A stretch of 52,585 bases of DNA from an uncultured Gammaproteobacteria bacterium (GCA_964562855.1 CAZLVB010000002.1:1-52585), one strand, 5' to 3'. Counted from the first letter of the stretch, positions 830 through 39,576 are shown. Notes: generated from the letters alone by a model not told the origin. Translations and numbers: made by a program.

Positions 830-852
830 CTTTTGGAATTTAGAAGTCAAAA
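830..852. repeat. 23-bp junction repeat copy 1 (CTTTTGGAATTTAGAAGTCAAAA)
   Basis: Exact copies at 2692 and 7773, 20/23 copy at 8101. Lies between two convergent stop codons (826 and 857). Confidence 0.9.
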
Positions 853-856
853 AATA

Positions 857-1132
857 TTAGGATTTTCTATACAATTCGTCATGAGTTCCCAGTGCAACAA
901 AGTAAGCAACAGAGTCTCCTCCTATTTGTATTTCTTTGTAGACTGCGCGGTAGTTGGAAGTTATATCGATACTCCTATATCCTTGCCATTCTCTTTTCAA
1001 CGGATGATTATCTAACCGAAGATCTGCGGGATCTTTGGTAAATAATAGGATTCTTTCTTTAAAACTTTTGCGGATTCTAACGTCTAATTTCTTTAGTTTT
1101 TTGACAACGCCAGGGCTTAACTTGACGTTCAT
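857..1132 (-). CDS. Type II toxin, RelE/YafQ-family mRNA interferase
   Basis: 91 aa, basic, motifs LDNHPLKREWQGYRSIDI and C-terminal LGTHDELY. Overlaps the upstream antitoxin. Confidence 0.85.
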   Translation of the reverse strand: MNVKLSPGVVKKLKKLDVRIRKSFKERILLFTKDPADLRLDNHPLKREWQGYRSIDITSNYRAVYKEIQIGGDSVAYFVALGTHDELYRKS

Positions 1133-1410
1133 ATGCCCTGTTTCTCAAGCCACTTGACTGCATCCTCTCCGGTATGAAATATGGGGGATCCCTTACCCTC
1201 TTCTAAATCTTTTTGCGCTTGCTTAATAGTTTTGATTAGATACTCACTGGGTTCTTCATCTCTAGCGCTGAACTCTACAGTTTTAGTTTTTATAAATTGC
1301 TTTAAGAAAGCCTTAATAACAACGGACAAAGGCATACCAAGTGCCGCAGCCGTTTTTTGAGCTTCTTTCTTGGTTTGGGGATCAACCTTGATGGTAACAA
1401 CAGTACTCAT
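1129..1410 (-). CDS. RelB/DinJ-family antitoxin
   Basis: N-terminal RHH-like TIKVDPQTKKEAQKTAAALGMPLSVVIKAFLKQF and acidic C-terminus. Start set at ATG 1410, downstream of the promoter. Confidence 0.85.
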   Translation of the reverse strand: MSTVVTIKVDPQTKKEAQKTAAALGMPLSVVIKAFLKQFIKTKTVEFSARDEEPSEYLIKTIKQAQKDLEEGKGSPIFHTGEDAVKWLEKQGI

Positions 1411-1450
1411 GGTATGCCAAAGTATATACGATAGCATACCAATTTGTCAA
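1411..1450 (-). promoter_or_regulatory. Sigma70 promoter and probable autoregulatory operator of the TA operon
   Basis: Minus strand TTGACA (1450-1445) ... TATACT (1426-1421). Inverted repeat GGTATGC (1411-1417) / GCATACC (1434-1440) brackets the -10. Confidence 0.6.
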
Positions 1451-1456
1451 CCTCAG

Positions 1457-2628
1457 CTATTGAAAAACTTTTTGAGCTTTTTCAGCGTCCCTGCCTCTGT
1501 CATCAAGAGCCCAGACAGTAACCACGGCATCAACACATTCTCCCGGAGTATCATAGTACCAAAGTATCTGTTCTGCCTTAGCAGGCCCAACAAAGTATCC
1601 GCAGTTTATTTTCCAGACATATCTGAGGTTCTCCCCACGGGCCGAGGCTTTTAGCAGATATCGATGAGGGAGTTCCTCATAAGAACCGTGAAGCTGGGTA
1701 TAATCAACCCTATCTATACTAACTGTATTCTCTGTTTCTTTCTTAGCCGAGCATTCTACCTTCGTACTTACTAACACTCTCTCATCAAAATAAGTCGAAT
1801 TTAAAAAACCATTTCGATTCTCTTCAGGAGGGGGAGTAAACAATCCAGTCATTTTCCCTCTTAAGCGAGCCTCAATGCTGACCACGGAAAAACCTTCTTC
1901 TCTGCAAAAAAAGTCTCTTCGGTAGAAACAGAATCAAATGCCTCAAGCGTAGTTAAATTTGGACGAGACTCAACTAAAGTTGGCCCTACAACTTCGCTAG
2001 CCTGATCTACGATGAATTTACCCTGGACACTTGAAGTCCTACTAATATAGTCTTTGACTATAACCCCGTCATCTAGAACTATGGTCAATATGTTGCCTGT
2101 ATTTTTTATTTTTGCGCGCACCAAGAACGAATCGGCAACATTAACTGGTAGAATAGGTCCAGTTATATCTACATTAAAAAATCCTAATGTGACCACCAAA
2201 GAACTAAAATGAGATAATTCAGCCGAAATTTTAGTTTTACCTGCAGCTTCCATAATCACCTCTACATTCTCAATAGGTAGAAAATCTTCACCAGAAAGAT
2301 GAGAAATCACGGGGATAAAGCCTCCCGAGTCCACATTGATTTTGACAGTAGCCGGTTGGGAGAGTGTTAATCCACCTGGAATTAGCTCATAAACTAAAAC
2401 ACCTTCATCATCTTGATTAGCCGTTCGTTTTACGGCAATATCTTTTTCTGATACGCCCTTAGGCAAGCTGCCTCGAGGAATTGTCAGCGCGACCTTTGCG
2501 TCATCCGACGCAACCTCAAACGTATTTAAGCCCTCATTTCTGCGGCTCGTAAACCACATAGCCAAAACCAAAGCAACAACCAGAACAAATACAACCACTA
2601 AAGGTAGAGCAAAGCCTCTCTTTGTCAC
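1457..2628 (-). pseudogene. Membrane-anchored/secreted beta-rich protein split by a 1-nt frameshift (or assembly homopolymer error)
   Basis: ORFs 1861..2628 and 1457..1885 join into one frame (..EETFFCREEGFSVVSIEARL..) if one A is added to the A7 run at 1906-1912. N-terminus MTKRGFALPLVVV is signal-anchor/prepilin-like. Confidence 0.65.
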
Positions 2629-2691
2629 AATTTCAGTCTAGCATTTTATGTGAGAGTCAACAAAATTGGGGCTAAAGTAACTCGCCATACG

Positions 2692-2714
2692 CTTTTGGAA
2701 TTTAGAAGTCAAAA
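2692..2714. repeat. 23-bp junction repeat copy 2
   Basis: Exact match to 830-852 and 7773-7795. Confidence 0.9.
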
Positions 2715-2792
2715 TTAACTTTTTTCTAATAAAGACCTTTTTATATTCGTAGCAATTACACGACTGAAAAGAATATATTCCTATGAAAACGG

Positions 2793-2993
2793 TTATGCAG
2801 CAAGTTTTACGTTTTTTGCGCTTGGACCTTTTTCACCTTCCACAACATCAAACGTGACAGCTGCTCCTTCTTGAAGTTCATCAAAAGTGACACCAACTAA
2901 ATCTGTAGAGTGAAAAAAAAGATCCTTTTCTTCTCCTTCACGGGTAATGAATCCGTATCCTTTATCGGTTTTTGTTTTAATTGTTCCATTCAT
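2793..2993 (-). CDS. csp: Cold-shock domain protein (CspA family)
   Basis: RNP1 KGYGFI, RNP2-like LFFH, C-terminal KGPSAKNV. 66 aa. Confidence 0.95.
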   Translation of the reverse strand: MNGTIKTKTDKGYGFITREGEEKDLFFHSTDLVGVTFDELQEGAAVTFDVVEGEKGPSAKNVKLAA

Positions 2994-3408
2994 AAATGTT
3001 TGTAAATTGATTTACTAAATCTACTTGTCCTCCTTTCCTTCTTGTTATTGTACTATTTTGGGCGAAAATTGCGTAGAGGCCCAAAAAACCTTACTTCGTA
3101 TTTACTAAATCAGCCCGAAAAATTCAATCAGCTCCGCGATGTTAACGCCAAGTCTGACTTGGCAGTCGCGTCTAACGCGGCGCACTTACCTGTCCGCCGT
3201 AATTTTCTTGATCCTCGAAGCTCTTGAGCGTAGTAGATAGCGTAGTAGATAATAAAGGCGGAGGACTTTTTTTCTAAAGACCAATGCGGAGTTCGAGCCG
3301 ATATCTTCGTGATTAGGGGATTTTCGAACCTTGCGCTGATCAGGTAACTAAAATCAACCGCGCTTGACAAGTATTAAGCGTCAATGATAAGGTCTTATTT
3401 ATCTTATA

Positions 3409-3912
3409 ATGGCAGAAGAAACAAAATCCAGCCTTAGCCCGGCAATCGTCGTTGTTGGGATTGTGGCGCTGGTAATTATTGCGATTGCCCTGTTCTTCGC
3501 TTTCGGTAAATCACAGCAATCAGTAACTTCTTCCCAAGAAACTGGTGAAGAAATCACAGCTTCACAGGAAACCCGAACTCCTACCGGCTCATTCGAGTTT
3601 CGGGGTCCCGGATACGTAGAAGTTTCTGATCCCAGAGAAGCAAGTATCATCATCGTCAACGCCCCAGGTGCCCAAGCAGCGAGGCCGATTGACGTCACTT
3701 TAAAGGTCGACGGCAAAGAAGTATGGAAAGAAACCATCAAAGCAGGTGAGTCCAATTGTGGTGATGCCAATACGTGCAGCATCACAGCTCCATCCAAACA
3801 AACCTGGGAAGGCATTCGTGAAGGCCAATATGGCCCAACACTCGAAGCGACTGACGCCGCCGGGAATCTCCTCGCACTCTTCGCAAATCTGGGCGCCTCT
3901 GAAGGTTTTTAG
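3409..3912 (+). CDS. Single-pass membrane protein with small extracellular beta domain
   Basis: N-terminal TM, S/T/E-rich linker, Cys pair (CGDANTC). TTGACA at 3364 upstream. Confidence 0.7.
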   Translation: MAEETKSSLSPAIVVVGIVALVIIAIALFFAFGKSQQSVTSSQETGEEITASQETRTPTGSFEFRGPGYVEVSDPREASIIIVNAPGAQAARPIDVTLKVDGKEVWKETIKAGESNCGDANTCSITAPSKQTWEGIREGQYGPTLEATDAAGNLLALFANLGASEGF

Positions 3913-4050
3913 ACCAGTTTTCCCTTCAGTAGATCATCACTCTACAACCTTCAAGATAGACTTGGGTTGGCACATAGTGGAGCGGAAAAATTTTACCTCT
4001 TTCTGTTTATCAGAGGGCAAAATTGGAAGTTAAAAATAGTTGCAATTCCC

Positions 4051-4911
4051 TTATTTTTGGACTACAACCCTGTGCGGATATGGAATCTCAATCTTTTCGC
4101 GGTCAAATGCAATCTTTATCCTCTTTCTCAATTCTCTTGCCACATCCCACTGTTTGATCGGTTTTGTTTCCCCCAATACCTTAATCTCAATTGCCGATTC
4201 CGCAAAATCGTCAACCCCTAGAACTTCTGGGGTTTTAGTAATCAGAGGCCCAAATTCTTTATCACGTAACATTTCCTTACCAACTCTGTTTAGAACTTTA
4301 ATAGCTTTATCTAAATTTGTTTCATATGCAACTGGAACGTTCAAATTCACCCTAGCGTAGCCTAGTGTCAAATTGGAAGCTGTTTTAATTTCTCCATTGG
4401 GAATGGAATGCACAACACCGTCCAAATCCCGCAAAATTGTCCGCCGCAAGTTAACATCCTCAACCAGACCTGCCGAATCGGCTATTTTAACCACATCTCC
4501 CTTTCGATATTGATTCTCCATGATAATGAAAAAACCAGCTATCAAATCCCTCACCAAATTTTGAGCCCCGAATCCAAAAGCAAGACCTACCAATCCTGCT
4601 CCAGTCAAAAGAGGCACAATATCTATCCCCAATTCCGAAAGTATCATCAAACCCCCAAGTAAAAACAGGACAGCAGCAATGGCATTTGAAACAACCGAGC
4701 CCAAAGTTTCCATCCTTTTTACAAAAGATTCTTTATTTTCTCCTGCTCGCCTTTCTGTCAAAGCGAGTATTTTAGGGGTAGTTCTTTTCAAAAAAAGTCT
4801 GGCTACAAATACAACCAAAACTATAACGAGAATTTTTAATCCGGAGGAAAAGACCTTGGCAATTATCAATTCAAAATCTATTTCAAAACCCACGACCATT
4901 AACTTAACCAA
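4051..4911 (-). CDS. Small-conductance mechanosensitive channel (MscS/YbiO family)
   Basis: GAGLVGLAFGFGAQNLVRDLIAGFFIIMENQYRKGDVV, G-x-VE-x-VNLRRT-x-LRDLDG-x-VH-x-IPNG. Start uncertain (possibly 4896). Confidence 0.92.
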   Translation of the reverse strand: MVKLMVVGFEIDFELIIAKVFSSGLKILVIVLVVFVARLFLKRTTPKILALTERRAGENKESFVKRMETLGSVVSNAIAAVLFLLGGLMILSELGIDIVPLLTGAGLVGLAFGFGAQNLVRDLIAGFFIIMENQYRKGDVVKIADSAGLVEDVNLRRTILRDLDGVVHSIPNGEIKTASNLTLGYARVNLNVPVAYETNLDKAIKVLNRVGKEMLRDKEFGPLITKTPEVLGVDDFAESAIEIKVLGETKPIKQWDVARELRKRIKIAFDREKIEIPYPHRVVVQK

Positions 4912-4987
4912 AAGGCCAAACTATGTCAAATTCTAGAATACGCGGGGTCTTAAAAGTATTCACAAGTCATGATATCTTAAGATTAAG

Positions 4988-6223
4988 ATGCTTGACTTAG
5001 CAGTTTTGCTGTTGATTCTGATTCTGTCATCCGCCTTTTTTTCCGGCGCAGAAGTTGCCTTCCTTTCAGTCAGTCAAGTCAAAATAAGATCTTTGATAAA
5101 AGAGGGGAAAATCGGTGCCGGTGCCTTACAACGACTCAGGTCGAAACCTCAAAAAATGATTATAACCATATTAATTGGAAACAATGTCGCCAATTTCTCA
5201 GCAGCAGCCCTAGTTACAATTATTGTCGAAAATATGCTTGGATCCCGGTGGATTGGTGCAGGAGTGGGTATCCTCACACTCATAATACTAATCTTTGGCG
5301 AAATTATCCCTAAATCAATATCAACAACTCACTCACAAACAATCGCTCTATCACTGGCTCAACCTATCGAAATTTTAAGTATAGCCCTTTCACCTATAGT
5401 TAGCCTACTAACAAAACTCTCAACAGTCATAAACAAGTTAATCAAGGCAAAATCTTATACGGCACTTACCAGAATGGATGTAAAATCGGTAATTGAACTG
5501 GGGCTGCAAAGCCATGTCATAGAACCTCATGAAGAGAGAATCTTACTTAAGACTTTAAAACTTCACGACATTTTAGCTTCAGAAATCATGACGCCGAAAG
5601 ACAAGATTTTTTCCCTAAACTCCAACCTAAGAGTTACAGAAACACACGCAAGAATCGAGAATCTGCGCTACTCTAGAATTCCTGTCTACGAGAAAAACCC
5701 AGACAATATTGTAGGTGTTGTCAACACGATTGATATCCTAAAATCAACCAGAATTGGAAACGAAAATCAAACCCTCAATGAAATTGCCGCAAGTCCGACC
5801 TTCGTAGCTGACGAGACCAAAATAGACTCTATTCTCAGATTCTTCCAGCGTAACCAGTCACATATGATTATAGTCATCAACAACCAAAAGAAGCTTGTGG
5901 GGCTCATCACCCTCGAGGATATTCTGGAGGAAATAGTCGGGGAAATCACAGACGAAAAGGAATTATCTCCGGGTGCAATAGTTCGTATAGATAAAAACAC
6001 AATTATCGCCCACGGCCAAACACAGATCTCAAGGATCAACCGTTTTTTAAACATTAATCTTCCGGAAAATTTAAAAACCTTATCAGAATTAATTCGCTCA
6101 AAAACCACTAAAATCAAAACAGGCGACAGTTTTGAAATTAACGGGGTTAAGATAACAATACTGCAAATTTACATGCATTCCTTAAGAAAAATTAGGTTGG
6201 AAAAAATAAACCCAAGTGTCTAG
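4988..6223 (+). CDS. CNNM/HlyC-CorC family transporter (DUF21 + CBS pair + CorC_HlyC)
   Basis: SAFFSGAEVAF, ILIGNNVAN, FGEIIPKS, YSRIPVY, GLITLEDILEEIVGEI. Confidence 0.92.
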   Translation: MLDLAVLLLILILSSAFFSGAEVAFLSVSQVKIRSLIKEGKIGAGALQRLRSKPQKMIITILIGNNVANFSAAALVTIIVENMLGSRWIGAGVGILTLIILIFGEIIPKSISTTHSQTIALSLAQPIEILSIALSPIVSLLTKLSTVINKLIKAKSYTALTRMDVKSVIELGLQSHVIEPHEERILLKTLKLHDILASEIMTPKDKIFSLNSNLRVTETHARIENLRYSRIPVYEKNPDNIVGVVNTIDILKSTRIGNENQTLNEIAASPTFVADETKIDSILRFFQRNQSHMIIVINNQKKLVGLITLEDILEEIVGEITDEKELSPGAIVRIDKNTIIAHGQTQISRINRFLNINLPENLKTLSELIRSKTTKIKTGDSFEINGVKITILQIYMHSLRKIRLEKINPSV

Positions 6224-6390
6224 CTTAAAAGTATATCAGAAGCCTAAATTTGAGGCTAGAATAATCAGCTCGCAGGATGGGACGATTTCAGAACGGCCAA
6301 TTGGCCGGAAATCGTGGATTATCCGGAAATTACTTTACAACAAACACAACAACTTCTTCAGTTGGTCACCTGACATTTCGGGTAAAATAT

Positions 6391-6669
6391 TTATGATCTA
6401 AGTTCTTTATCAACTCTATCTGACAAGAAAATCTTTATCAATGACTGATAAGGGACATCTCTTGCATTAGCAATTTGTTTTATTCTCGCCAGTAAATATT
6501 TGGGCAATCTTAAGGATATCGATTCAGTCGAAGGTCGTAGATTTGGGAAAATGACGTGTTCCGCTTTGGACCAATCTATATATTCAGTTGAATCATGCAC
6601 TGCCCAGAATGCTCTCTCTTCGTCTTCGGTTTTAAACTTAGGAATCAATTTTAACTTTTTCATATTCAC
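6391..6669 (-). CDS. BrnA/CopG-family antitoxin
   Basis: IPKFKTEDEERAFWAVHDSTEY...ISLRLP...A..DVPYQSLIK. Overlaps the BrnT gene. Confidence 0.85.
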   Translation of the reverse strand: MNMKKLKLIPKFKTEDEERAFWAVHDSTEYIDWSKAEHVIFPNLRPSTESISLRLPKYLLARIKQIANARDVPYQSLIKIFLSDRVDKELRS

Positions 6670-6943
6670 CCCTCTCTTTAATATTCATATCTCGAAAAGA
6701 AATAGGTCTTACTTTCCGATTTCTTATTGTAAAAGATATGAACAATAGCCTATTTTGGTTTGTTTTTCCTAATGCTTGATACCTTATCTCTCGATCCGAG
6801 TGTGCCTTATCTTCGTTAAGTAACAAAGGCTTATGGCTGAAAATTTCCTCTGCTTCTTGATAAGTGACATTATGTTTTATTAAATTTTTGTCGATATTAC
6901 CCTGATCCCAATCAAAAGCAACGGGCTCAGGTAGTATCTTCAC
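6638..6943 (-). CDS. BrnT-family ribonuclease toxin
   Basis: FDWDQGNIDKNLIKHNVTYQEAEEIF, HSDREIRY, VRPISFRDMN..ER. Confidence 0.9.
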   Translation of the reverse strand: MKILPEPVAFDWDQGNIDKNLIKHNVTYQEAEEIFSHKPLLLNEDKAHSDREIRYQALGKTNQNRLLFISFTIRNRKVRPISFRDMNIKERGEYEKVKIDS

Positions 6944-6949
6944 TTATTA

Positions 6950-6978
6950 AGTATATTACAAGAATATACAAAAGTCAA
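6950..6978 (-). promoter_or_regulatory. Sigma70 promoter of the brnT-brnA pair
   Basis: Minus strand TTGACT-N17-TATACT immediately upstream of the GTG start, implying a near-leaderless mRNA. Confidence 0.6.
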
Positions 6979-7023
6979 TTATCCATTTGGGGTGTTGACA
7001 TTAAATTCTGGCTCTACTTAATA

Positions 7024-7042
7024 GACAACATTAGAACCTATT
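7024..7042. repeat. 19-bp direct repeat copy 1 (GACAACATTAGAACCTATT)
   Basis: Exact second copy at 7493-7511. Confidence 0.9.
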
Positions 7043-7427
7043 TTATTAATACATGACCAGCAACTACCGCCGCAGCAAGCTGTAAAAAGAAATCAACGGC
7101 CTTGTTCCCAACGTAATTTGTTATTCTGCTAAGTAGTTTTGCCTTTGCTTTGGCATCCATTGCCCCTTGCGAATAAAAGGCAATTATTTCTTGAAACAAT
7201 TCCTTCTTTTCAGTTGAAGACAAACCACTATTTCCGATTGTATTTACCAGCTCTTTTAATAAGTAGCTAGGGTCTTGGTTCGAAAAAGTGTTACTTTGTG
7301 AAACAAATCCTTCAACATTGTGCAGTTCGATGTCGGTTTCAAAACCTTGAAATTTACAATTTATAATTTTCAGGTCTCTAGAATTTGTTGCCTTAATAGC
7401 TGTTGACATAGTGATGAATTGTACCAT
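7038..7427 (-). CDS. Hypothetical protein
   Basis: 129-aa ORF (start may be 7409) bracketed by the 19-bp direct repeats. Short beta-rich N-terminus and helical C-terminus. Confidence 0.6.
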   Translation of the reverse strand: MVQFITMSTAIKATNSRDLKIINCKFQGFETDIELHNVEGFVSQSNTFSNQDPSYLLKELVNTIGNSGLSSTEKKELFQEIIAFYSQGAMDAKAKAKLLSRITNYVGNKAVDFFLQLAAAVVAGHVLIK

Positions 7428-7492
7428 GGGTTCGATTACCCAACTCGGAGTATTAAAGAATTGAGGCTAAGTTTTACTGGTTCCACCCCGTG

Positions 7493-7511
7493 GACAACAT
7501 TAGAACCTATT
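7493..7511. repeat. 19-bp direct repeat copy 2
   Basis: Exact match to 7024-7042. Confidence 0.9.
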
Positions 7512-7517
7512 ATTTAG

Positions 7518-7757
7518 TTAATTAGCTTCGTCGGATATATTTTTGTGGGTTTCAAGGTAGTGCCTTGCAACAGTAAAAAAAGCAGCTATGCTTACTCCAA
7601 CGAATATCAAGGCGAGCAAAATTATGACGGTATTTTCAAAACCAAATAATGATTTCAAAAATAACGCTGCTGCAACTGCTCCAGAACAAAGAAAGATAAA
7701 ACTCCCTAAAAAATCCTTCATATTTTCATAGAGTAAGACTCCTTGCCACTTTTTCAT
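7518..7757 (-). CDS. Small two-TM hypothetical protein
   Basis: Two hydrophobic segments. Start at ATG 7757 or 7721, because the ORF-track start lies inside the promoter/repeat. Confidence 0.55.
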   Translation of the reverse strand: MKKWQGVLLYENMKDFLGSFIFLCSGAVAAALFLKSLFGFENTVIILLALIFVGVSIAAFFTVARHYLETHKNISDEAN

Positions 7758-7764
7758 TAATAAA

Positions 7765-7795
7765 AATATATGCTTTTGGAATTTAGAAGTCAAAA
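7765..7795 (-). promoter_or_regulatory. Junction repeat copy 3, forming sigma70 promoter TTGACT-N17-TATATT
   Basis: -35 at 7793-7788, -10 at 7770-7765. The 23-bp core 7773-7795 abuts the stop codon at 7796. Confidence 0.75.
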
Positions 7796-8071
7796 TTAGA
7801 AAAAAATAAATTTAACTAGCCAAGCGACAACACCAAGACCTATTGAAAAAATGGCGAGCATGGTTAGTATAGAAGTGTTAACAAATGTTGCTTCGCTCTT
7901 TTGAATATTGCCGCCTAAAGAAGCCGATTTCCCTAATAGCCCAACTAATATTCCTAAAATTAGCCCCACAACAGAACCAATAATTACACCATTTGTCATC
8001 CCAAACACAGCTCCCCAGAGCAGGCCATTTATTGCTCCAATAATTAATCCATATATTATTGCTGGTAACAT
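7796..8071 (-). CDS. Small Gly-rich membrane protein
   Basis: Three hydrophobic segments with GxxxG repeats. Confidence 0.65.
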   Translation of the reverse strand: MLPAIIYGLIIGAINGLLWGAVFGMTNGVIIGSVVGLILGILVGLLGKSASLGGNIQKSEATFVNTSILTMLAIFSIGLGVVAWLVKFIFF

Positions 8072-8092
8072 TTGTACAGGCAGCTTGAGTAA

Positions 8093-8123
8093 AATATATG
8101 CTTTTGGGGTTTAGAAGTCAAAG
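8093..8123 (-). promoter_or_regulatory. Junction repeat copy 4, forming sigma70 promoter TTGACT-N17-TATATT
   Basis: -35 at 8121-8116 contains the TGA stop of the upstream gene. -10 at 8098-8093. 20/23 identity to the core. Confidence 0.75.
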
Positions 8124-9167
8124 CTGGGTTACTTCTATGTTGCTTATTATCACATTCTCATCCCCATAACACCTGAATCCAATCATTCCATATGTGTCAC
8201 GAAATCTAATAATAGACTCATCGCCAAAACCGTATTTTTCGCCTATTATTTCTTTTTCTTTCACTGGCCAATTTGCTCGATAATTTGAAGGTAGATTCCA
8301 TACGAATGGTTTTTCGCCAATCTCTTTAAAACTTAATTCGAGTTTATTCTTATTCACCAATATATTGACCTCGTGAGGTTTTTTTTCATTAAATGCAGTT
8401 TCAGCATTCATAGGATAAATCTCGTGCGTTAAAATATCCCAATTTCCATCTACTCTAACATGAGGAACTATCCAAAGCTGTTTTTTCTGACCAGAAACCG
8501 CATTTGATCCATTTAAATCCTTAATTCCTATCGCAATCATAAAATAATTATTAAGATCTAGTGCTCTAAAAACAAAGCCAAACCAATTGTTATTAGTTAA
8601 ATACTCAATCTTTTCAGCAACGTTACTTTCTCTTCTTTTTCTAGTGTACCCAAACTCTACAGATGTCTTAAACTTTTCGAAGTTGAATACAAAATCTATA
8701 GAAAAATTCTTCCAATAATAATACTTAATTAAAGCGCCAGAATCTGAACTCGTAATACGAAAGCCTCTTTTGCTTATTTTTTCTACCCTACCTTGAAAAG
8801 TTAAGTTATTCAAACAATCATCTAGAAAAAATTTTCTTGATTTTTCATATGCAGAAAATACATCAGTTATTTCTTGAATTAAATTCCACAGAATTGGCAG
8901 AAAAACAACTAAAATCCAAACAAGCAAAAGTACAAATAACGCAACAAGTACAGTTTCTGGGGCAAAAAGCATTTTGTCTTGCTGATTAGTAAACAATTCT
9001 GCGATGAAATCTTTATTTATGTGAGTAACATCGGGGGTTTCGTTCGGTAAGAGAAATCTATTTACGAGCCAAAGTAATAATAGTGTAGCAGTGTAAATCA
9101 GTAGTACATAAATGGTAAAAAGGGGCTTATTACTAACTCTAAACTTTAATAATTTTGACCAATCCAT
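8118..9167 (-). CDS. Two-TM protein with a C-terminal beta-sandwich (concanavalin/DUF1080-like) domain
   Basis: Two N-terminal TMs, then WFGFVFRALDLNNYFM and C-terminal GMIGFRCYGDENVIISNIEV, which resemble ConA-like folds. Confidence 0.6.
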   Translation of the reverse strand: MDWSKLLKFRVSNKPLFTIYVLLIYTATLLLLWLVNRFLLPNETPDVTHINKDFIAELFTNQQDKMLFAPETVLVALFVLLLVWILVVFLPILWNLIQEITDVFSAYEKSRKFFLDDCLNNLTFQGRVEKISKRGFRITSSDSGALIKYYYWKNFSIDFVFNFEKFKTSVEFGYTRKRRESNVAEKIEYLTNNNWFGFVFRALDLNNYFMIAIGIKDLNGSNAVSGQKKQLWIVPHVRVDGNWDILTHEIYPMNAETAFNEKKPHEVNILVNKNKLELSFKEIGEKPFVWNLPSNYRANWPVKEKEIIGEKYGFGDESIIRFRDTYGMIGFRCYGDENVIISNIEVTQL

Positions 9168-9207
9168 AATCCTGCCATTTAGGCAGGTTATAATAAGGGC
9201 AACTCAG

Positions 9208-9279
9208 CTCCCCGGCCTGGATTCGAACCAGGAACCTATCGCTTAACAGGCGAGCGCTCTACCGTTGAGCTACCGGGGA
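9208..9279 (-). tRNA. tRNA-Asn(GTT)
   Basis: TCCCCGG acceptor, anticodon loop CTGTTAA, T-arm GGTTCGAATCC. No encoded CCA. Confidence 0.95.
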
Positions 9280-11285: not shown

Positions 11286-13686
11286 TCCTAAACAGTAACA
11301 GAAAACAGCCGGCTAGACCAAGCGCCGAAACGCCCAAAGCCAACTTGAAAATATCGCTGTCATAATATAGACGAACTTCGTGCTCTCCGCGATTCAAAGG
11401 TACAGCCCGAAAGGTATAATTTGCCCTCAAAATCGGCACCTCATTCCCGTCGACTTGCGCCTTCCAGCCGGGATACCAATTGTCTGAAAGAAACAACAGT
11501 TTTGGCTCTCTTGAGTTTGTCGCAATAACAACCTCTTGGGATTTATAACTAATAATTTCTGCAGCTCCCTCTCCAAATTGCGCGCTTACAGGCGAAGGCT
11601 TTTCTAAAATCAATACGTTCCTAAAGTCAAAATCCGGCTCCTGTAGCTTTTGAAAAATAAGCTTTCTTCTTTCCTTCTCTAGCTTCTCAACCTCCTGACC
11701 GTTTAACCCTCCCAGTTGAGGAGGTCCTTCATAGTTTGACGCCAAGAACGCTCTAGGCAAAACCTGCAGGTTCTCAAAGACCGCTAAACCTTTATCTTCA
11801 AACACTTGCTTAAAATTATTTTCTTCCATAACTTCAACTTCGCCCACTTTAGCAATAACGAATTTAACTCCGACTAGGTCAATTAATCTTCTTCGGGGAC
11901 TTTCTATAAGTTCGGTAGTGTTTCCTCTGCCTAACCCGGCATCTGCTCTAAAGGTGTAACTTTCGAGCCTGTTGCCCTGCATTACATAAGTAAATTCACT
12001 ATAGCTCTGATTGTTCAACGAATCATAGCCTTCCGGCCAAAAAATTTGGTACTGGCTGGCAAAATTATTCTCCAGGAAACTGTCTCCCACTCCCCAAGAG
12101 CGAAAATAGCCTTGATTCTCCCTTATGAATTGCAAGATCCCATTATTGGGAAAAACGTATTGTCGCTCGCTAAAGGAAAAGTATTTTTGGGAAAAGTAAA
12201 AGGTATGCGCAAAAGCCAAAATTAAAATCGCCAAGGACACCCACGACCGTAATCTTGCTCGCCGCTGACCTGCTAAGATTAAAGCCGAGGTTAACACAAA
12301 AATGGAAAGGGGCAGCAGCAAGTTGCGCAGTGAAACAAGAGCATTATCGCCGCCACCAACAGTACTGACTCTTTGAAAATAGGGCAGACCAAGAAATTTC
12401 GCGGCTAAAAGGTAAAAGACAATGAGAAGATAGATCGCCCCCAAAACCCAAATAACTTTGAAAATTTGTCTGGCTCGATTTTTAAGCCACCGATCAAATC
12501 CGATTGCCGCTAAAATCGCCAAGCAAAAAGCCGGCACAAAAAGGATTCTGTTGGCAATCGAAGTCGAAAGGAAAGGAATGGGCAGGCTTAAAAATAATTT
12601 GGATGTAGGGAGCACAAACGTCGTAGATGCAGAAATTAACGCAAAAAGCGCCAAAAAGCGCACTAATTTATCTTTTTTCAAAACAAAGACGGCATAAACT
12701 GCGAAAATTAAGGCCGCAACACCCACAAATAGAATTCCTTCATAATATTGAGCCGCGCCTCCTCTAAAGAAATTGTGGGTGGCCGGATGGCCGAAAAAAT
12801 CCGGCGCCAAAAGTGTCACTAAACTCTCAATTGGCAATAAAAAGCTAAAAATTACATCCTTTAAGGGAATCGATGCCCTGCCCGAGTTATAAAATAGTTC
12901 TGCCGACGGAAAAAGTTGAATTGCCGAAATCAAAGTTCCTAGAACCATCCCGAAGCAGATTTGGGCCAAGTTACTTATTCTTACCCGAAATTTCCGAGAT
13001 TTTTCAAAAACCCTGAAAATCGCGTAAAAAACGGCAAAAATTGCTACGTAGATTGAGGTCTGCACATAGCCGGCAAAAAGAGATGCTGCCCAAGAAAACG
13101 CGATCACGGCAATGTATGGCTTTCTGCCATCTTTCAAAAATTTATCCACCGCCCATAGAATCAGCGGCAACCAAACTATAGAGTGAGGTGACTGCACAAC
13201 CTCTTCGCCCCAAGTGATCACAAACGGGCTAAATCCAAAAGTTAAGGCCCCGAAAAAGGCTGCCAAACTGGAAAGCTCCTTCTTGCCGACTCTTAAATTC
13301 ACCAAATATAAAAAAGTAAAGAAGGAGGCCAGAATTGTCGGTGTAATTCGCCAAAGATGCCAGGTGCTGATCTGCCCGAGAAACATCGCGGCAACATTCA
13401 AGGGATAAAAAACTGCCGTCTGAAAATCGGCAAGATGCGGATGACCGGAAAAGGCATGAGGGTTCCAAAACGGCAGCGCAAAATTCCTGAATGCATCAAG
13501 TGTCACCTTCAAAAAAGGAAAATAAATGCGCAGCTGATCCCAGCCGGTTAATTTATACGGCAAATTTTCCCCATAAGGAGGATAAAAGGAAACCAAAAGA
13601 TTGCCATTCAAATTAACTTTCCCAAAAAATATCGGCCAAAAAAGCAGTAGGGAAAGAATTGTAAACAATCCGAGGACTTTAATCAC
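11266..13686 (-). CDS. YfhO-family membrane glycosyltransferase
   Basis: PFWNPHAFSGHPHLAD, LPRAFL, LFLSDNWYPGWKAQVDG..ILRANYTFRAV. Confidence 0.88.
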   Translation of the reverse strand: MIKVLGLFTILSLLLFWPIFFGKVNLNGNLLVSFYPPYGENLPYKLTGWDQLRIYFPFLKVTLDAFRNFALPFWNPHAFSGHPHLADFQTAVFYPLNVAAMFLGQISTWHLWRITPTILASFFTFLYLVNLRVGKKELSSLAAFFGALTFGFSPFVITWGEEVVQSPHSIVWLPLILWAVDKFLKDGRKPYIAVIAFSWAASLFAGYVQTSIYVAIFAVFYAIFRVFEKSRKFRVRISNLAQICFGMVLGTLISAIQLFPSAELFYNSGRASIPLKDVIFSFLLPIESLVTLLAPDFFGHPATHNFFRGGAAQYYEGILFVGVAALIFAVYAVFVLKKDKLVRFLALFALISASTTFVLPTSKLFLSLPIPFLSTSIANRILFVPAFCLAILAAIGFDRWLKNRARQIFKVIWVLGAIYLLIVFYLLAAKFLGLPYFQRVSTVGGGDNALVSLRNLLLPLSIFVLTSALILAGQRRARLRSWVSLAILILAFAHTFYFSQKYFSFSERQYVFPNNGILQFIRENQGYFRSWGVGDSFLENNFASQYQIFWPEGYDSLNNQSYSEFTYVMQGNRLESYTFRADAGLGRGNTTELIESPRRRLIDLVGVKFVIAKVGEVEVMEENNFKQVFEDKGLAVFENLQVLPRAFLASNYEGPPQLGGLNGQEVEKLEKERRKLIFQKLQEPDFDFRNVLILEKPSPVSAQFGEGAAEIISYKSQEVVIATNSREPKLLFLSDNWYPGWKAQVDGNEVPILRANYTFRAVPLNRGEHEVRLYYDSDIFKLALGVSALGLAGCFLLLFRSEFKKR

Positions 13687-13910
13687 CGACCAAAATTATC
13701 CGATTTCTTAATCTAATTTGCAAAACTTAGCTGCGGGTGGCAGTCGTGGAAGGGCCCCGACAGCGCGCAGCTCGACATTGTCTTTCTGATTAACAACTGT
13801 TTTCTGACTCGAGCGAGCACTGGCGGGAGGCCCGCCTGCAACGCTATGCGTAGCATTGCGGGAGGGAAACGACTGACAGGAGCCGTAAGTACAGTCTGTG
13901 GTAACAATAA

Positions 13911-14090
13911 TCAAAACAACGTGTAGATAAACGGTGCCACGCCCGTGGTTTGGGCAAAGACCAAAAGCAGGCCAAAAATTAAAAGCACTGCAACAAACGG
14001 AATTAAAAACCAAAGTTTAGCTTTCCATAAAAATTCCAAAAGCTCCCCCGCCTCGCCGCCTCTGGAAAACATTTGTTTCAAAATTCTCAT
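13911..14090 (-). CDS. DUF5989/SxtK-like small membrane protein (absent from the ORF track)
   Basis: 59 aa MRILKQMFSRGGEAGELLEFLWKAKLWFLIPFVAVLLIFGLLLVFAQTTGVAPFIYTLF. The family-typical APFIYTLF terminus follows the carbamoyltransferase. Confidence 0.88.
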   Translation of the reverse strand: MRILKQMFSRGGEAGELLEFLWKAKLWFLIPFVAVLLIFGLLLVFAQTTGVAPFIYTLF

Positions 14091-14130
14091 GACAATATGA
14101 GGATATTATACATTGGAAATTTGAAATTCC

Positions 14131-15915
14131 TCAAAGATCTTCTTTGAGGACTATATATCGCTCCAATGCCAAAATATCCAGCCCCGACTTCGAAAAAGTA
14201 TTAAAAGCATTCTCGGGCGAATTAACAATCGGCTCGCCCTTTAAGTTAAAAGACGTATTTAAAAGCACATAAACTCCGGTTTTTTGACCGAATTTTTTAA
14301 TAATATTGTAATAGCGCGCGTTCTGATTCTTACTGATTATTTGCAGTCTGCCGCTTCCGTCTACATGTGTGACTGCCCGAATAACTTTTTGCATATTTTT
14401 CTTAACAGGAAAAACTGCCAGCATAAATTTTGTCAAATCTTCGTGCTTTAAATCCCCAACTTCAAAATAATCCTTTGCCTTTTCAGTCAAAACCACCGGC
14501 GCAAACGGTCTATACGGTTCTCTGAATTTAATTTTTGTATTGACAACATCCTTCATTTCCTCACGCCTTGGGTCTGCCAGAATCGATCTTGAACCGAGTG
14601 CTCTTGGCCCCCATTCTGCTCTGCCATGGAAAAACCCGATAACTTTGCCGCCGGCAATCTCACCAGCTAAAAAGTCGACCAACTTCTCTTCGGAGGTAAT
14701 TTTTTTATATTTAATCCTCTTGCCTTTCAAAAATCGCTCGATCTCGCTGTCCTCAAATTCCTCTCCAAAATAACAAGTCTCCTGGACAAATTTGCGCGCC
14801 TTGCCCAAAAGAGCATGATAAACATACATCGCCGCGCCTAAACTTCCGCCGTCATCACCTGCTGCCGGCTGAACAAAGACTCGTTTAAAGGGTCCTTTTT
14901 TAAGAAGAACTCCGTTGGCAACACTATTCAATCCAACTCCCCCGCCGATGCAAAGATTCTCACTTTTGACTTTACCATGTACAAATTTGGCCAAATTTAA
15001 AATCACTTCTTCAGTGAAGGCTTGAATAGATGCGGCAATATCCGCATACTTCTGGTTTAACTCGCAAAGCTTCTCAAAATCATCAGGTTTTTCTCCAAAA
15101 TACGAAGGATATCCGCTAGATTCGGTAAAAAAGTGTAAGTCGTAGGGTCTTGGTTGGCCAAAAAGCTCGACAAATTTCTGGCTGTATGCACAATCTGCCG
15201 ATTTATGAAAGGTAAAATAATCCATATTCAGTCTAAATGAGCCGTCGTTATACACTTTAACCAACCGTCTGACTTTATCGAAATATCGTGGCTTTCCGTA
15301 AGGTGCCATAACCATCACCTTATACTCCCCATCGTTAACCTCAAAGCCCAAAAAGGCGGTAAAGACAGAGTATAAAAGCCCTAAGGAGTGAGGAAATTTA
15401 ATTTCTTGAAAGATTTTGAGATCTTCTCCTTGCCCCTTGCCATATGCTGTAGTTGTCCACTCACCAACACCGTCAAAAGTCAAAACGGCTGCTTCATCAA
15501 AAGGCGATGCATAAAAACTTGAAGCCGCGTGGGAGATATGATGAGGGACAAAAAGAATTTTAGAAGGCGTAATTTCCAGTTCGTCTGCTATAATCGATCG
15601 TACCCATAGCTTATCTATAAGCCAGACAGTCATCGATTTGGCAAATAATCTGGAAGCTACAGGATAAGTAGCCAATGTCGAGAGTAAAATTCTCTGAAAT
15701 TTCCAAAAAGGTTTCTCGTAAAAAACTACGTAATCTAAATCCTTAGCATTGATTTCGGCTTTTTTAAGACAAAAATCAACTGCCATTTTGGGAAACTCAC
15801 TGTCATGTTTTTTACGGGTAAACCTTTCCTCGGCACTTGCGGCAATAACTTTACCGTCGGCAATTAAAGTAGCCGCTGACTCATGATAAAAACAAGAAAT
15901 ACCCAGGATATACAT
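14131..15915 (-). CDS. O-carbamoyltransferase (NodU/CmcH/SxtI family)
   Basis: ILGISCFYHESAA, EERFTRKKHD, HHISHAASSFY, DGVGEW, EWGPRALGSRSILADPR, KIKFREPYRPFAP, LNTSFN. Confidence 0.95.
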   Translation of the reverse strand: MYILGISCFYHESAATLIADGKVIAASAEERFTRKKHDSEFPKMAVDFCLKKAEINAKDLDYVVFYEKPFWKFQRILLSTLATYPVASRLFAKSMTVWLIDKLWVRSIIADELEITPSKILFVPHHISHAASSFYASPFDEAAVLTFDGVGEWTTTAYGKGQGEDLKIFQEIKFPHSLGLLYSVFTAFLGFEVNDGEYKVMVMAPYGKPRYFDKVRRLVKVYNDGSFRLNMDYFTFHKSADCAYSQKFVELFGQPRPYDLHFFTESSGYPSYFGEKPDDFEKLCELNQKYADIAASIQAFTEEVILNLAKFVHGKVKSENLCIGGGVGLNSVANGVLLKKGPFKRVFVQPAAGDDGGSLGAAMYVYHALLGKARKFVQETCYFGEEFEDSEIERFLKGKRIKYKKITSEEKLVDFLAGEIAGGKVIGFFHGRAEWGPRALGSRSILADPRREEMKDVVNTKIKFREPYRPFAPVVLTEKAKDYFEVGDLKHEDLTKFMLAVFPVKKNMQKVIRAVTHVDGSGRLQIISKNQNARYYNIIKKFGQKTGVYVLLNTSFNLKGEPIVNSPENAFNTFSKSGLDILALERYIVLKEDL

Positions 15916-25265: not shown

Positions 25266-25691
25266 GGGGATGTATCGTTTCGACAGGATAGCTCTTTAAA
25301 AACCGCAAGCCGAATATGATTCTAAAGTGCGCAGTCTTTGAATCAAACTTACGTGCAAAGAACAAACTTGCACAACTGGCTGATGCCGTTTTCGGCGTCA
25401 GGCAGCCAGCTTACGCTTTTGCTGCATAAGCAAGCTTGAGCTTGTCTCTCTGGCTTTTTCTCGGTGAAGCTTTTTGAGGCACAAACTTAGCCGAGAGTAG
25501 GTCTTCAGCCTTGATCAGGCTTCAGACTGAAACTGCCGATCTTTGTTTGAATTTAGCCTGTTAATCGGCCACAAATTTAAACGAGAATTTATAGATTCCC
25601 GCCATAGGCGGGTCAGCCTCTGGCTGAAACTAAGCTTGTAGATGTTTTTGATTAGTTGTTCTGGACCCGAGCTCAACACTCGGCATCTCCA
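25266..25691 (+). ncRNA. ssrA: tmRNA; tag (A)AKNKLAQLADAVFGVRQPAYAFAA at about 25355-25429
   Basis: 5' GGGGATG..TTTCGAC, 3' CCGAG-CTCAACA-CTCGG CATCTCCA (G3:U pair), tag ending AA*, follows smpB. Confidence 0.92.
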
Positions 25692-25696
25692 CTTTT

Positions 25697-39363: not shown

Positions 39364-39424
39364 CCCTCGCATTCGCTCGGGATAAACTCAGGAAAGTTTA
39401 CCCTGAGGAGCGTAGCGACGAAGG
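39364..39424. repeat. Two-arm REP/MITE-like element
   Basis: Left arm 25/27 identical to 51503-51529. Right arm CTGAGGAG.G.AGCGACGAAG also at 51568-51595. Confidence 0.75.
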
Positions 39425-39576
39425 GCGGTCGGTCTCCTGGCTTCCCAAAAACCCAAAAGGGCTGGGTTACAGTTGCGGCACAGCTCCGGATTCACACCGG
39501 ATTTCCGTTTGAAGTATGAGCCTTCTCTCCATCCGAAGCTTTATGCGTAGGACGGAAATGACTCAAACCGCTCCTT
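39421..39576 (-). promoter_or_regulatory. Cobalamin (B12) riboswitch
   Basis: Minus strand: P1 AAGGAGCGGT/ACCGCCCTT, core AAACGGAAATCCGGTGTGAATCCGGAGCTGTGCCGCAACTGTAA, B12-box GGAAGCCAGGAGACC. Confidence 0.88.

Follow-up and report, generated by a model that had tools for sequence, protein, structure and literature searches.

In a tiny groundwater bacterium, a 23-bp repeat, CTTTTGGAATTTAGAAGTCAAAA, marks the seams of a hyperplastic accessory region of the chromosome. We read it as the conserved part of a predicted portable promoter module that is probably copied and exchanged between unrelated genes, in a manner like that of the promoter-early stem-loop (PeSL) cassettes of T4-type phages, and give this reading a probability of about 0.55. 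The repeat (hereafter the 23-mer or box) lies in a stretch of 52,585 nucleotides (nt; CAZLVB010000002.1:1–52585 of assembly GCA_964562855.1), the window, which makes up the first 52.6 kb of a contig of 60 kb. The assembly (46 contigs, 839,781 bp, 94.9% complete) is referred to as G000; other G-numbers are genomes of the same order, and L-numbers are the loci compared.

A mismatch search finds the 23-mer exact at 830–852, 2692–2714 and 7773–7795 and with three mismatches (20/23) at 8101–8123, always on the plus strand, in agreement with a preliminary description made from the sequence of the window. Read on the minus strand it provides a −35 box, TTGACT, with a 17-nt spacer, and the four copies can be set out as follows:

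Copy 1, 830–852, minus strand: the 23-mer alone with no −10 box, facing the 3′ end of a convergent gene.
Copy 2, 2692–2714, minus strand: the 23-mer alone, with TATGGC where the −10 would be; it lies 78 nt downstream of a cold-shock gene (2793–2993).
Copy 3, 7755–7795, minus strand: a full predicted promoter, with the −35 at 7793–7788, the conserved spacer, the −10 (TATATT) at 7770–7765 and an ATG at 7757.
Copy 4, 8069–8123, minus strand: a full predicted promoter, with the −35 at 8121–8116, the −10 (TATATT) at 8098–8093, a conserved leader start and an ATG at 8071.

The preliminary description had given these −10 states, decayed in copy 2 and absent from copy 1, and had placed three of the copies beside or over stop codons; both points hold, and the stops can be located exactly. 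Copy 1 takes up 23 of the 30 bases that separate two convergent stops: the stop of a plus-strand gene (824–826) lies 3 nt before it, and that of a relE/parE-like gene (857–859) lies 4 nt after it. This copy cannot serve a gene. At copy 3 a stop (7796–7798) directly abuts the 23-mer, and the gap of 7 nt from −10 to ATG implies a leaderless start. At copy 4 the stop of a 349-amino-acid (aa) gene (8118–8120) is the TGA within TTGACT itself, and the corresponding gap is 21 nt; folding reveals no stable hairpin here (z −0.2), and the sub-variant represented by this copy also precedes unrelated genes at L073, L085 and L103. Copies 3 and 4 each score 10/12 in a consensus promoter scan, among the top five of its 26 sites, and the same scan finds no promoter-like site at copy 2. 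The operon after copy 2 has a TG-extended −10-like box at 2643–2635, 6 nt ahead of the GTG at 2628; a 17-nt-spacer promoter at this place was considered and rejected, the spacer being 14 nt, which leaves at best a TG-extended −10.

These copies form a sharp four-member family, confined to 7.3 kb. The expected number of 23-mer matches is 0 (100 shuffles), and across the whole assembly the four window copies are the sole matches at three or fewer mismatches. Allowing 5, 6, 7 and 8 mismatches gives 3, 23, 84 and 410 genome-wide matches against 3, 15, 80 and 352 for a reversed-sequence control; since such degenerate copies do not exceed the control, we reject the 23-mer as the top of a general promoter consensus. 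A whole-genome scan, one of the checks proposed in the preliminary description, thus confines the repeat to one variable region and does not reveal a scattered operator. Aligned with their surroundings, the four copies have the 23-mer alone in common, to which copies 3 and 4 add up to 10 bases. Independent assemblies of four public runs, all from one study, yield contigs that span every copy with zero differences. The imperfect dyad described earlier survives in its outer pairs, TTTTG...CAAAA (5+5), but is otherwise weak, and the description of the 23-bp repeat as a site without attC hairpins stands. Rfam gives no match at the 23-mer copies, or at 2990–3420 and 13600–14150.

The promoter geometry is conserved well beyond the window. 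In a set of 40 non-redundant copies (39 for the profile columns), conservation begins abruptly at the first base of the box, with none upstream, and is near-complete through the −35 and most of the spacer: TTTGACT is invariant, 12 further columns are at least 90% conserved, and the variable positions are mainly box spacer bases 15–17. CATATAT, with at most one change, follows at exactly 17-nt spacing in 26 of the 40, making a full predicted promoter, and in these conservation continues through a dozen predicted transcribed bases to fade about 36 nt after the first box base. The other 14 keep the 23-mer alone, with similarity ending within about 2 nt past the box (for example, window copies 1 and 2, L072, L084, L100 and L104). 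Downstream open reading frames (ORFs) mostly start 14–60 nt past the box, so that many transcripts would be leaderless or short-leadered. Of six folded copies, four, all from relatives, carry a GC hairpin and U-run either past the −10 or immediately past the box (z −3.2 to −4.0).

Other short sequences recur around the same loci. A second promoter-like box, of the TG-extended −10 type, stands directly before the start codons of unrelated genes in several relatives (L082 at about 640–660, L037 at about 6030–6052, L042 at about 4270–4290, and L099), sometimes 30–90 nt downstream of the 23-mer module. Many copies have degenerate short-repeat runs next to them, with an abundance of CTTCGG- and TTCGAC-like words (L038, L039, L100 and L082), and an upstream extension of about 22 nt is common to L096, G032 and a box-less tRNA-proximal spacer of G013.

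The box is lineage-specific yet patchy, a pattern like that of accessory DNA. It is present in 8 of the 34 genomes of the order (19 copies at three or fewer mismatches; reversed control 0), and the profile built from 39 copies has matches at E<0.005 in 10 of the 34; the remaining 24, including genomes 96–99% complete, give profile matches at E>0.009 only. Elsewhere in the class, matches turned up in 6 of the 372 genomes sampled (7 matches, each with 3 mismatches) against 6 control matches, which is not above noise. An exact scan of a species-genome collection with a degenerate box returned 10 loci, 6 in Curtissbacteria records and 4 in unrelated taxa, the latter read as chance matches. The same scan of metagenome contigs returned 42 loci; judged from their sequences, about 31 are real and 11 due to chance, with several duplicates. 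Viral contigs contain 0 exact matches to the degenerate box. The box-bearing relatives are titled Candidatus Curtissbacteria, a lineage of the candidate phyla radiation.

Copies of the box cluster, with four in 7.3 kb in G000, four in 3.3 kb in G018 and seven profile matches (up to nine with looser matching) in 6.1 kb in G032. Each cluster is one-directional, the flanked genes running the same way as the copies in all three genomes, and each copy in G018 and G032 precedes one or two small genes. All-against-all BLASTP of the downstream ORFs identifies only three homologous pairs, the ORFs being otherwise unrelated, and most are without a Pfam family (of one list of 116 ORFs, the 60 closest to the box were searched). 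The regions also carry toxin–antitoxin pairs, small GIY-YIG genes and one insertion-sequence transposase.

On its upstream side the box has three recurrent conserved anchors. tRNA-Asn is found in this position in G000, G004, G013 and G032 (the G032 tRNA by DNA likeness, not by ARAGORN), and the cold-shock gene csp in G000, G013, L072/L095 and L082, with unrelated genes after the box in all four csp loci. A third anchor, dnaJ, is found in G004, G006, G010 and G016, representing four genera whose dnaJ genes are only about 67–73% identical in DNA. With all three anchors, the genes past the box differ each time. A HigBA pair in G004 and an antitoxin–PIN pair in G016 lie between dnaJ and the box, with no second box copy. 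Elsewhere the box follows RelBE pairs in three loci (at 4, 22 and 49 nt) and BrnTA pairs in two.

When related genomes are compared, as the preliminary description had asked, breaks in homology and synteny do fall at the box or beside it. Homology between L073 and G004 resumes at its first base, and two G032 cassettes have 100 nt in common at 92% identity, beginning exactly at the box. Between G000 and the same-genus G001 homology ends at about 822, 7 nt from copy 1, and the region differs between these congeners. A 333-aa gene is flanked by a copy on both sides (L078/L086 versus L094/L087). G001 has a small homologue of the first 24 residues of the window's 91-aa glycine-zipper gene without the box, and a histidine-phosphatase gene has the box upstream in L082 and none in G013; these box-less homologues indicate that box and gene are not tied together.

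Near-identity before unrelated genes, across genera and in a patchy set of genomes, points to a sequence that has been copied and exchanged, not reinvented; indeed, identical stretches of 23–45 bases cannot arise independently, so that copying is needed under every reading. From these comparisons we infer promoter activity, spread by recombination between copies, and a binding partner. The 23-mer would represent the −35 and spacer of a module of about 33–45 bp, formed by the box, the TATATT −10 and the conserved first dozen transcribed bases. Most copies of this module would act as a sigma-70-type promoter for the gene that follows, usually an orphan, with a leader that is short or missing. 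Recombination between copies would spread it, and the shared module would serve as a site at which unrelated neighbours exchange DNA; the box is the likely exchange point because it is the sole sequence common to these neighbours and lies where homology starts or stops. The invariance of the spacer across genera, together with exact boxes that are without a −10, suggests that a sequence-specific partner (a regulator or a recombinase) may recognise the 23-mer, and such a partner would explain why one third of the copies keep the exact 23-mer without a −10.

Several observations weigh against a portable promoter spread in this way. No recombination between copies was seen, population contigs from the four runs show no joint at any copy, and the one rearrangement that was seen has its ends at the tRNA end and in a different repeat, D4. 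A look for RNA runs covering the region listed none. At 23–45 bp, the conserved sequence is near the lower limit for homologous recombination and is shorter than PeSLs, and the window copies are without a stem-loop. A plain promoter plus copying does not explain the 14 of 40 boxes that are without a −10, some of them 23/23 identical (copies 1 and 2) with homology stopping within 2 nt. Breakpoints at gene ends are, moreover, expected anyway in a compact genome, where surviving insertions must lie upstream of the promoter.

Among known systems, the closest analogue of the box is best read as the PeSL cassette, in which recombination between shared promoter and stem-loop motifs is reported to shuffle orphan genes (PMC2839356; PMC4122927). 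PeSLs, like the box, present a short conserved sigma-70-type promoter motif between genes (here TTGACT-17-TATATT, predicted), with the stop of the upstream gene just before the motif and the start of the next just after; they are likewise concentrated in hyperplastic regions, mostly before orphan genes, and the motif is the shared sequence joining unrelated modules (PMC2839356). The terminator-like hairpin found after the −10 in some relatives' copies may add to the likeness. The box differs in belonging to the chromosome of a candidate-phyla-radiation lineage and not to a phage, in agreement with its 0 matches to viral contigs. It is also shorter, at 23–45 bp, and its window copies are without a stem-loop. 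One box sequence is conserved across an order, as opposed to within one phage pair, and a third of the copies keep the −35/spacer part alone. Box-bounded homology is seen between distant relatives; no close-strain box-bounded indel or circle was found in contigs.

Putative mobile promoters offer a second comparison, being near-identical upstream sequences that stand before non-homologous genes and pass between genera, with the way of moving unknown (PMC3575422). The box similarly presents near-identical sequence ahead of non-homologous genes in several genera. It is too short, and too near the start codon, for that survey, whose threshold is at least 50 nt at at least 80% identity in the −150 to −50 region (PMC3575422), whereas conservation of the box fades at about 36 nt; its copies, unlike mobile promoters, are clustered and mark synteny breaks. 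A full-text literature search found nothing pairing Curtissbacteria with promoter, and papers pairing the candidate phyla radiation with gene cassettes or integrons were judged unrelated from their titles and the starts of their abstracts.

The likeliest alternative, which we hold possible but clearly less probable than the portable promoter and which can coexist with it, treats the 23-mer as an operator: acquired genes would be co-regulated by a DNA-binding protein specific to the lineage. Acting as a repressor, an activator or a roadblock, this protein might, on this tentative scheme, bind the 23-mer along its length, the overlap with −35 and spacer being where such proteins act. From genus to genus the spacer varies as little as the −35 (39 copies); where the −10 is missing, the box is still exact and sharply bounded on either side; the copy linked to dnaJ is retained in four genera; and there is a small outer dyad, TTTTG...CAAAA. 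That dyad is weak, however, and the downstream genes belong almost all to different families, unlike those of a regulon. Genomes with the box hold only 1–9 copies, it is absent from 24 of the 34 (96–99% complete ones included), and no candidate regulator gene recurs beside the arrays. A regulon operator would be expected genome-wide before conserved orthologues; what is found in G000 is four copies within 7.3 kb, ahead of unrelated genes.

The preliminary description had favoured an integron-like system of single-gene cassettes, each supplied with a promoter by the repeat. In the version weighed here a recombinase would insert and excise cassettes by crossing over just after the 23-mer, each junction also making a promoter, and this we now consider unlikely. 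Like integrons, the region holds co-directional arrays of small, often orphan or toxin–antitoxin modules with a repeated boundary sequence. The abrupt end of homology within 2 nt past the box in copies 1 and 2, L072, L084, L100 and L104 would suit a crossover at this point, as would a copy on both sides of some genes (the window modules, and the 333-aa gene of L078/L086 versus L094/L087), and in G004 a large serine recombinase abuts tRNA-Asn. Against this, the array has neither an integrase beside it nor an identified attI end; its repeat, 23 bp long, forms no hairpin and carries a predicted promoter, and the cassettes are not promoterless. Inverted binding arms around a short spacer are absent, as are hairpins, and toxin–antitoxin modules have inserted beside the box without a second copy. 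The promoter-shaped boundary repeat of same-direction small modules thus holds from the earlier account. Tests of its integron-like recombination in G000 yielded no support, and neither outcome that was to refute it (a motif scattered across the genome, or relatives free of breakpoints) was observed. A doubtful variant of the idea makes the 23-mer the core site of a novel cassette-exchange system of the candidate phyla radiation, with an Xer-type or unrecognised host enzyme exchanging DNA just past the box; each junction might then, with equally little probability, rebuild a promoter from the resident −35/spacer and the incoming −10.

The recombinase expected nearby under the integron-like scheme did not materialise. 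Window ORFs give no Phage_integrase or Resolvase match, and no recombinase was found in the 7.5 kb of contig past the window, a scan made with these two families only, or in the 9–13 kb examined around the arrays of G013, G018 and G032. G000 has no serine recombinase, and its tyrosine recombinases are just two Xer-like genes on other contigs (C13 and C15/C46; the end of C15 and the start of C46 carry overlapping halves of one such gene, so these contigs are probably adjacent). No hairpin-forming repeat bounds the window modules. The circular junctions that had been proposed were likewise missing: contigs from the four runs show no joint, excision or circle junction at any copy, although contigs hide rare forms. 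Two short skips at 1081–1364 (sides of 21–22 letters) were set aside as foreign toxin–antitoxin look-alikes, and one run has loose ends (7761, 7763, 7798) that belong to contigs of other organisms with only the box in common. An Xer/dif-type site was also set aside because the box is without dif-type arms; a genome scan with a dif arm, allowing at most one change, gave 33 scattered matches and no clear dif.

The 516-aa G004 serine recombinase (L040, G004:C6, 4549–6110; Resolvase, Recombinase and zinc-ribbon domains) overlaps tRNA-Asn with its 3′ end; the box is 5.75 kb off at the contig start, and the gene may belong to a small integrated element.

It is more improbable still that the box is the terminal 23–25 bp of a small mobile element whose outward-facing −35 forms hybrid promoters with a flanking −10. 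Insertion-sequence ends can form hybrid promoters with an adjoining −10 in this way, homology stops sharply past the box in the copies that are without one, and the box lies after RelBE, BrnTA and csp units with unrelated DNA beyond. Yet no transposase, matching inverted or direct partner end, or target-site duplication was seen; in 26 of 40 copies conservation extends to the −10 and leader themselves, which are therefore not random flanking DNA; and the distance from the preceding gene to the box ranges from 4 to 49 nt among the RelBE loci. Chance resemblance or an assembly artefact is already refuted by the shuffles (0 in 100), by the four-run contigs that bridge all copies and by conservation of the box in other genomes.

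The sole structural variant in the population contigs involves the second repeat, D4, of which the window has two copies:

D4 copy a, 7008–7042, minus strand: at the 3′ end of a 129-aa gene; one end of the rearrangement in co-occurring contigs.
D4 copy b, 7477–7511, minus strand: 7 nt past the stop of a 79-aa gene.

D4 consists of a 19-base core followed by a small hairpin, the stem of which varies by paired substitutions, and its copies come right behind stop codons. The order has 15 of them, spread over 10 of its 34 genomes; in G000 one lies outside the window, at C34:747–765. In two runs, 9196 (just past the tRNA end) is joined to 7019 (inside D4), with 17 other letters between. The same short sequence follows both the D4 copy and the tRNA-Asn end, and in the variant strain the 349-aa module seems to stand after a D4 copy instead of the tRNA-Asn end; the joint may represent a module re-ordering or a circle. 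On this evidence D4 and the tRNA end, and not the 23-mer, look like an active breakpoint in this population.

The arrangement recalls tRNA-linked islands, with a variable, lower-GC region directly 3′ of tRNA-Asn and, in G004, a serine recombinase at the tRNA. It differs from them in that the G000 region has no integrase and the 23-mer is not tRNA-derived. D4 may act as a tRNA-derived repeat, its likeness to the 3′ half of tRNA-Asn amounting to 8 + 5 bases only. Two further observations concern this tRNA in relatives: in L027 (G001:C28, 277–705) tRNA-Asn is seemingly split by about 350 nt holding tRNA-like sequence and a small ORF, and in G013 tRNA-Asn overlaps at its start with a small GIY-YIG gene.

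The 8.4 kb between the tRNA-Asn gene and a conserved gene is the hyperplastic accessory region of G000, and its principal genes are these:

tRNA-Asn(GTT), 9207–9279, minus strand: the variable region with all four copies lies 3′ of it in the same direction, copy 4 being about 1.1 kb downstream.
349-aa orphan membrane protein gene, 8118–9167, minus strand: the first gene after tRNA-Asn.
91-aa glycine-zipper-like small membrane protein gene, 7796–8071, minus strand: a weak Gly-zipper match (E 0.008), between copies 4 and 3.
79-aa small membrane protein gene, 7518–7757, minus strand: downstream of copy 3, with no family.
Module between copies 2 and 1, 857–2628, minus strand: orphans at 1861–2628 and 1457–1885, a RelB-like antitoxin at 1129–1437 and a ParE/RelE-like toxin at 857–1132 (Pfam).

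From the tRNA end, the minus-strand order is tRNA-Asn, the 349-aa gene, copy 4, the 91-aa gene, copy 3, the 79-aa gene, D4 copy b, the 129-aa orphan, D4 copy a and BrnT/BrnA; there follow a CNNM/MscS/cold-shock block, copy 2, two orphans with RelB/RelE, copy 1 and the stop of the convergent conserved gene. A consensus scan places a TTGACA-18-TATACT site at 1450–1421 before relB. Nine unknown ORFs of the window region have 0 matches in Pfam (E 0.001 or better), PHROGs or PADLOC. GC content is 0.35–0.36 in the tRNA-proximal part, against about 0.43 for most of the window.

The contig also carries rpoD, dnaG, smpB, tmRNA and tRNAs. Ordinary features elsewhere in the window include a cobalamin riboswitch (39410–39548, minus strand) and the tmRNA gene (25266–25694, plus strand) beside smpB. 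A GC-rich stretch of about 95 nt at 13733–13828, upstream of a yfhO-like gene, is 85–91% identical to several sites on different contigs of G004, G013 and G018; it looks structured and matches neither a tRNA nor an Rfam family. At 3172–3304, in the interval separating the cold-shock gene from the one that follows, short stretches are 82–91% identical to places in G018:C15 and G013:C6, also with no Rfam match.

Gene regulation and gene exchange in the candidate phyla radiation are almost unstudied because the organisms are uncultured, and PeSLs are so far known from T4-type phages only; the box would bring a PeSL-like or mobile-promoter element into a candidate-phyla-radiation chromosome. It provides a concrete, testable predicted promoter for this lineage and a marker for the hyperplastic regions where tiny genomes take up genes. 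Were the cassette-exchange reading true, the system would be the functional counterpart of an integron, one whose recombination site creates promoters. Should the box also turn out to be bound by a protein or to serve as a recombination site, it would reveal how foreign genes are wired into minimal genomes.

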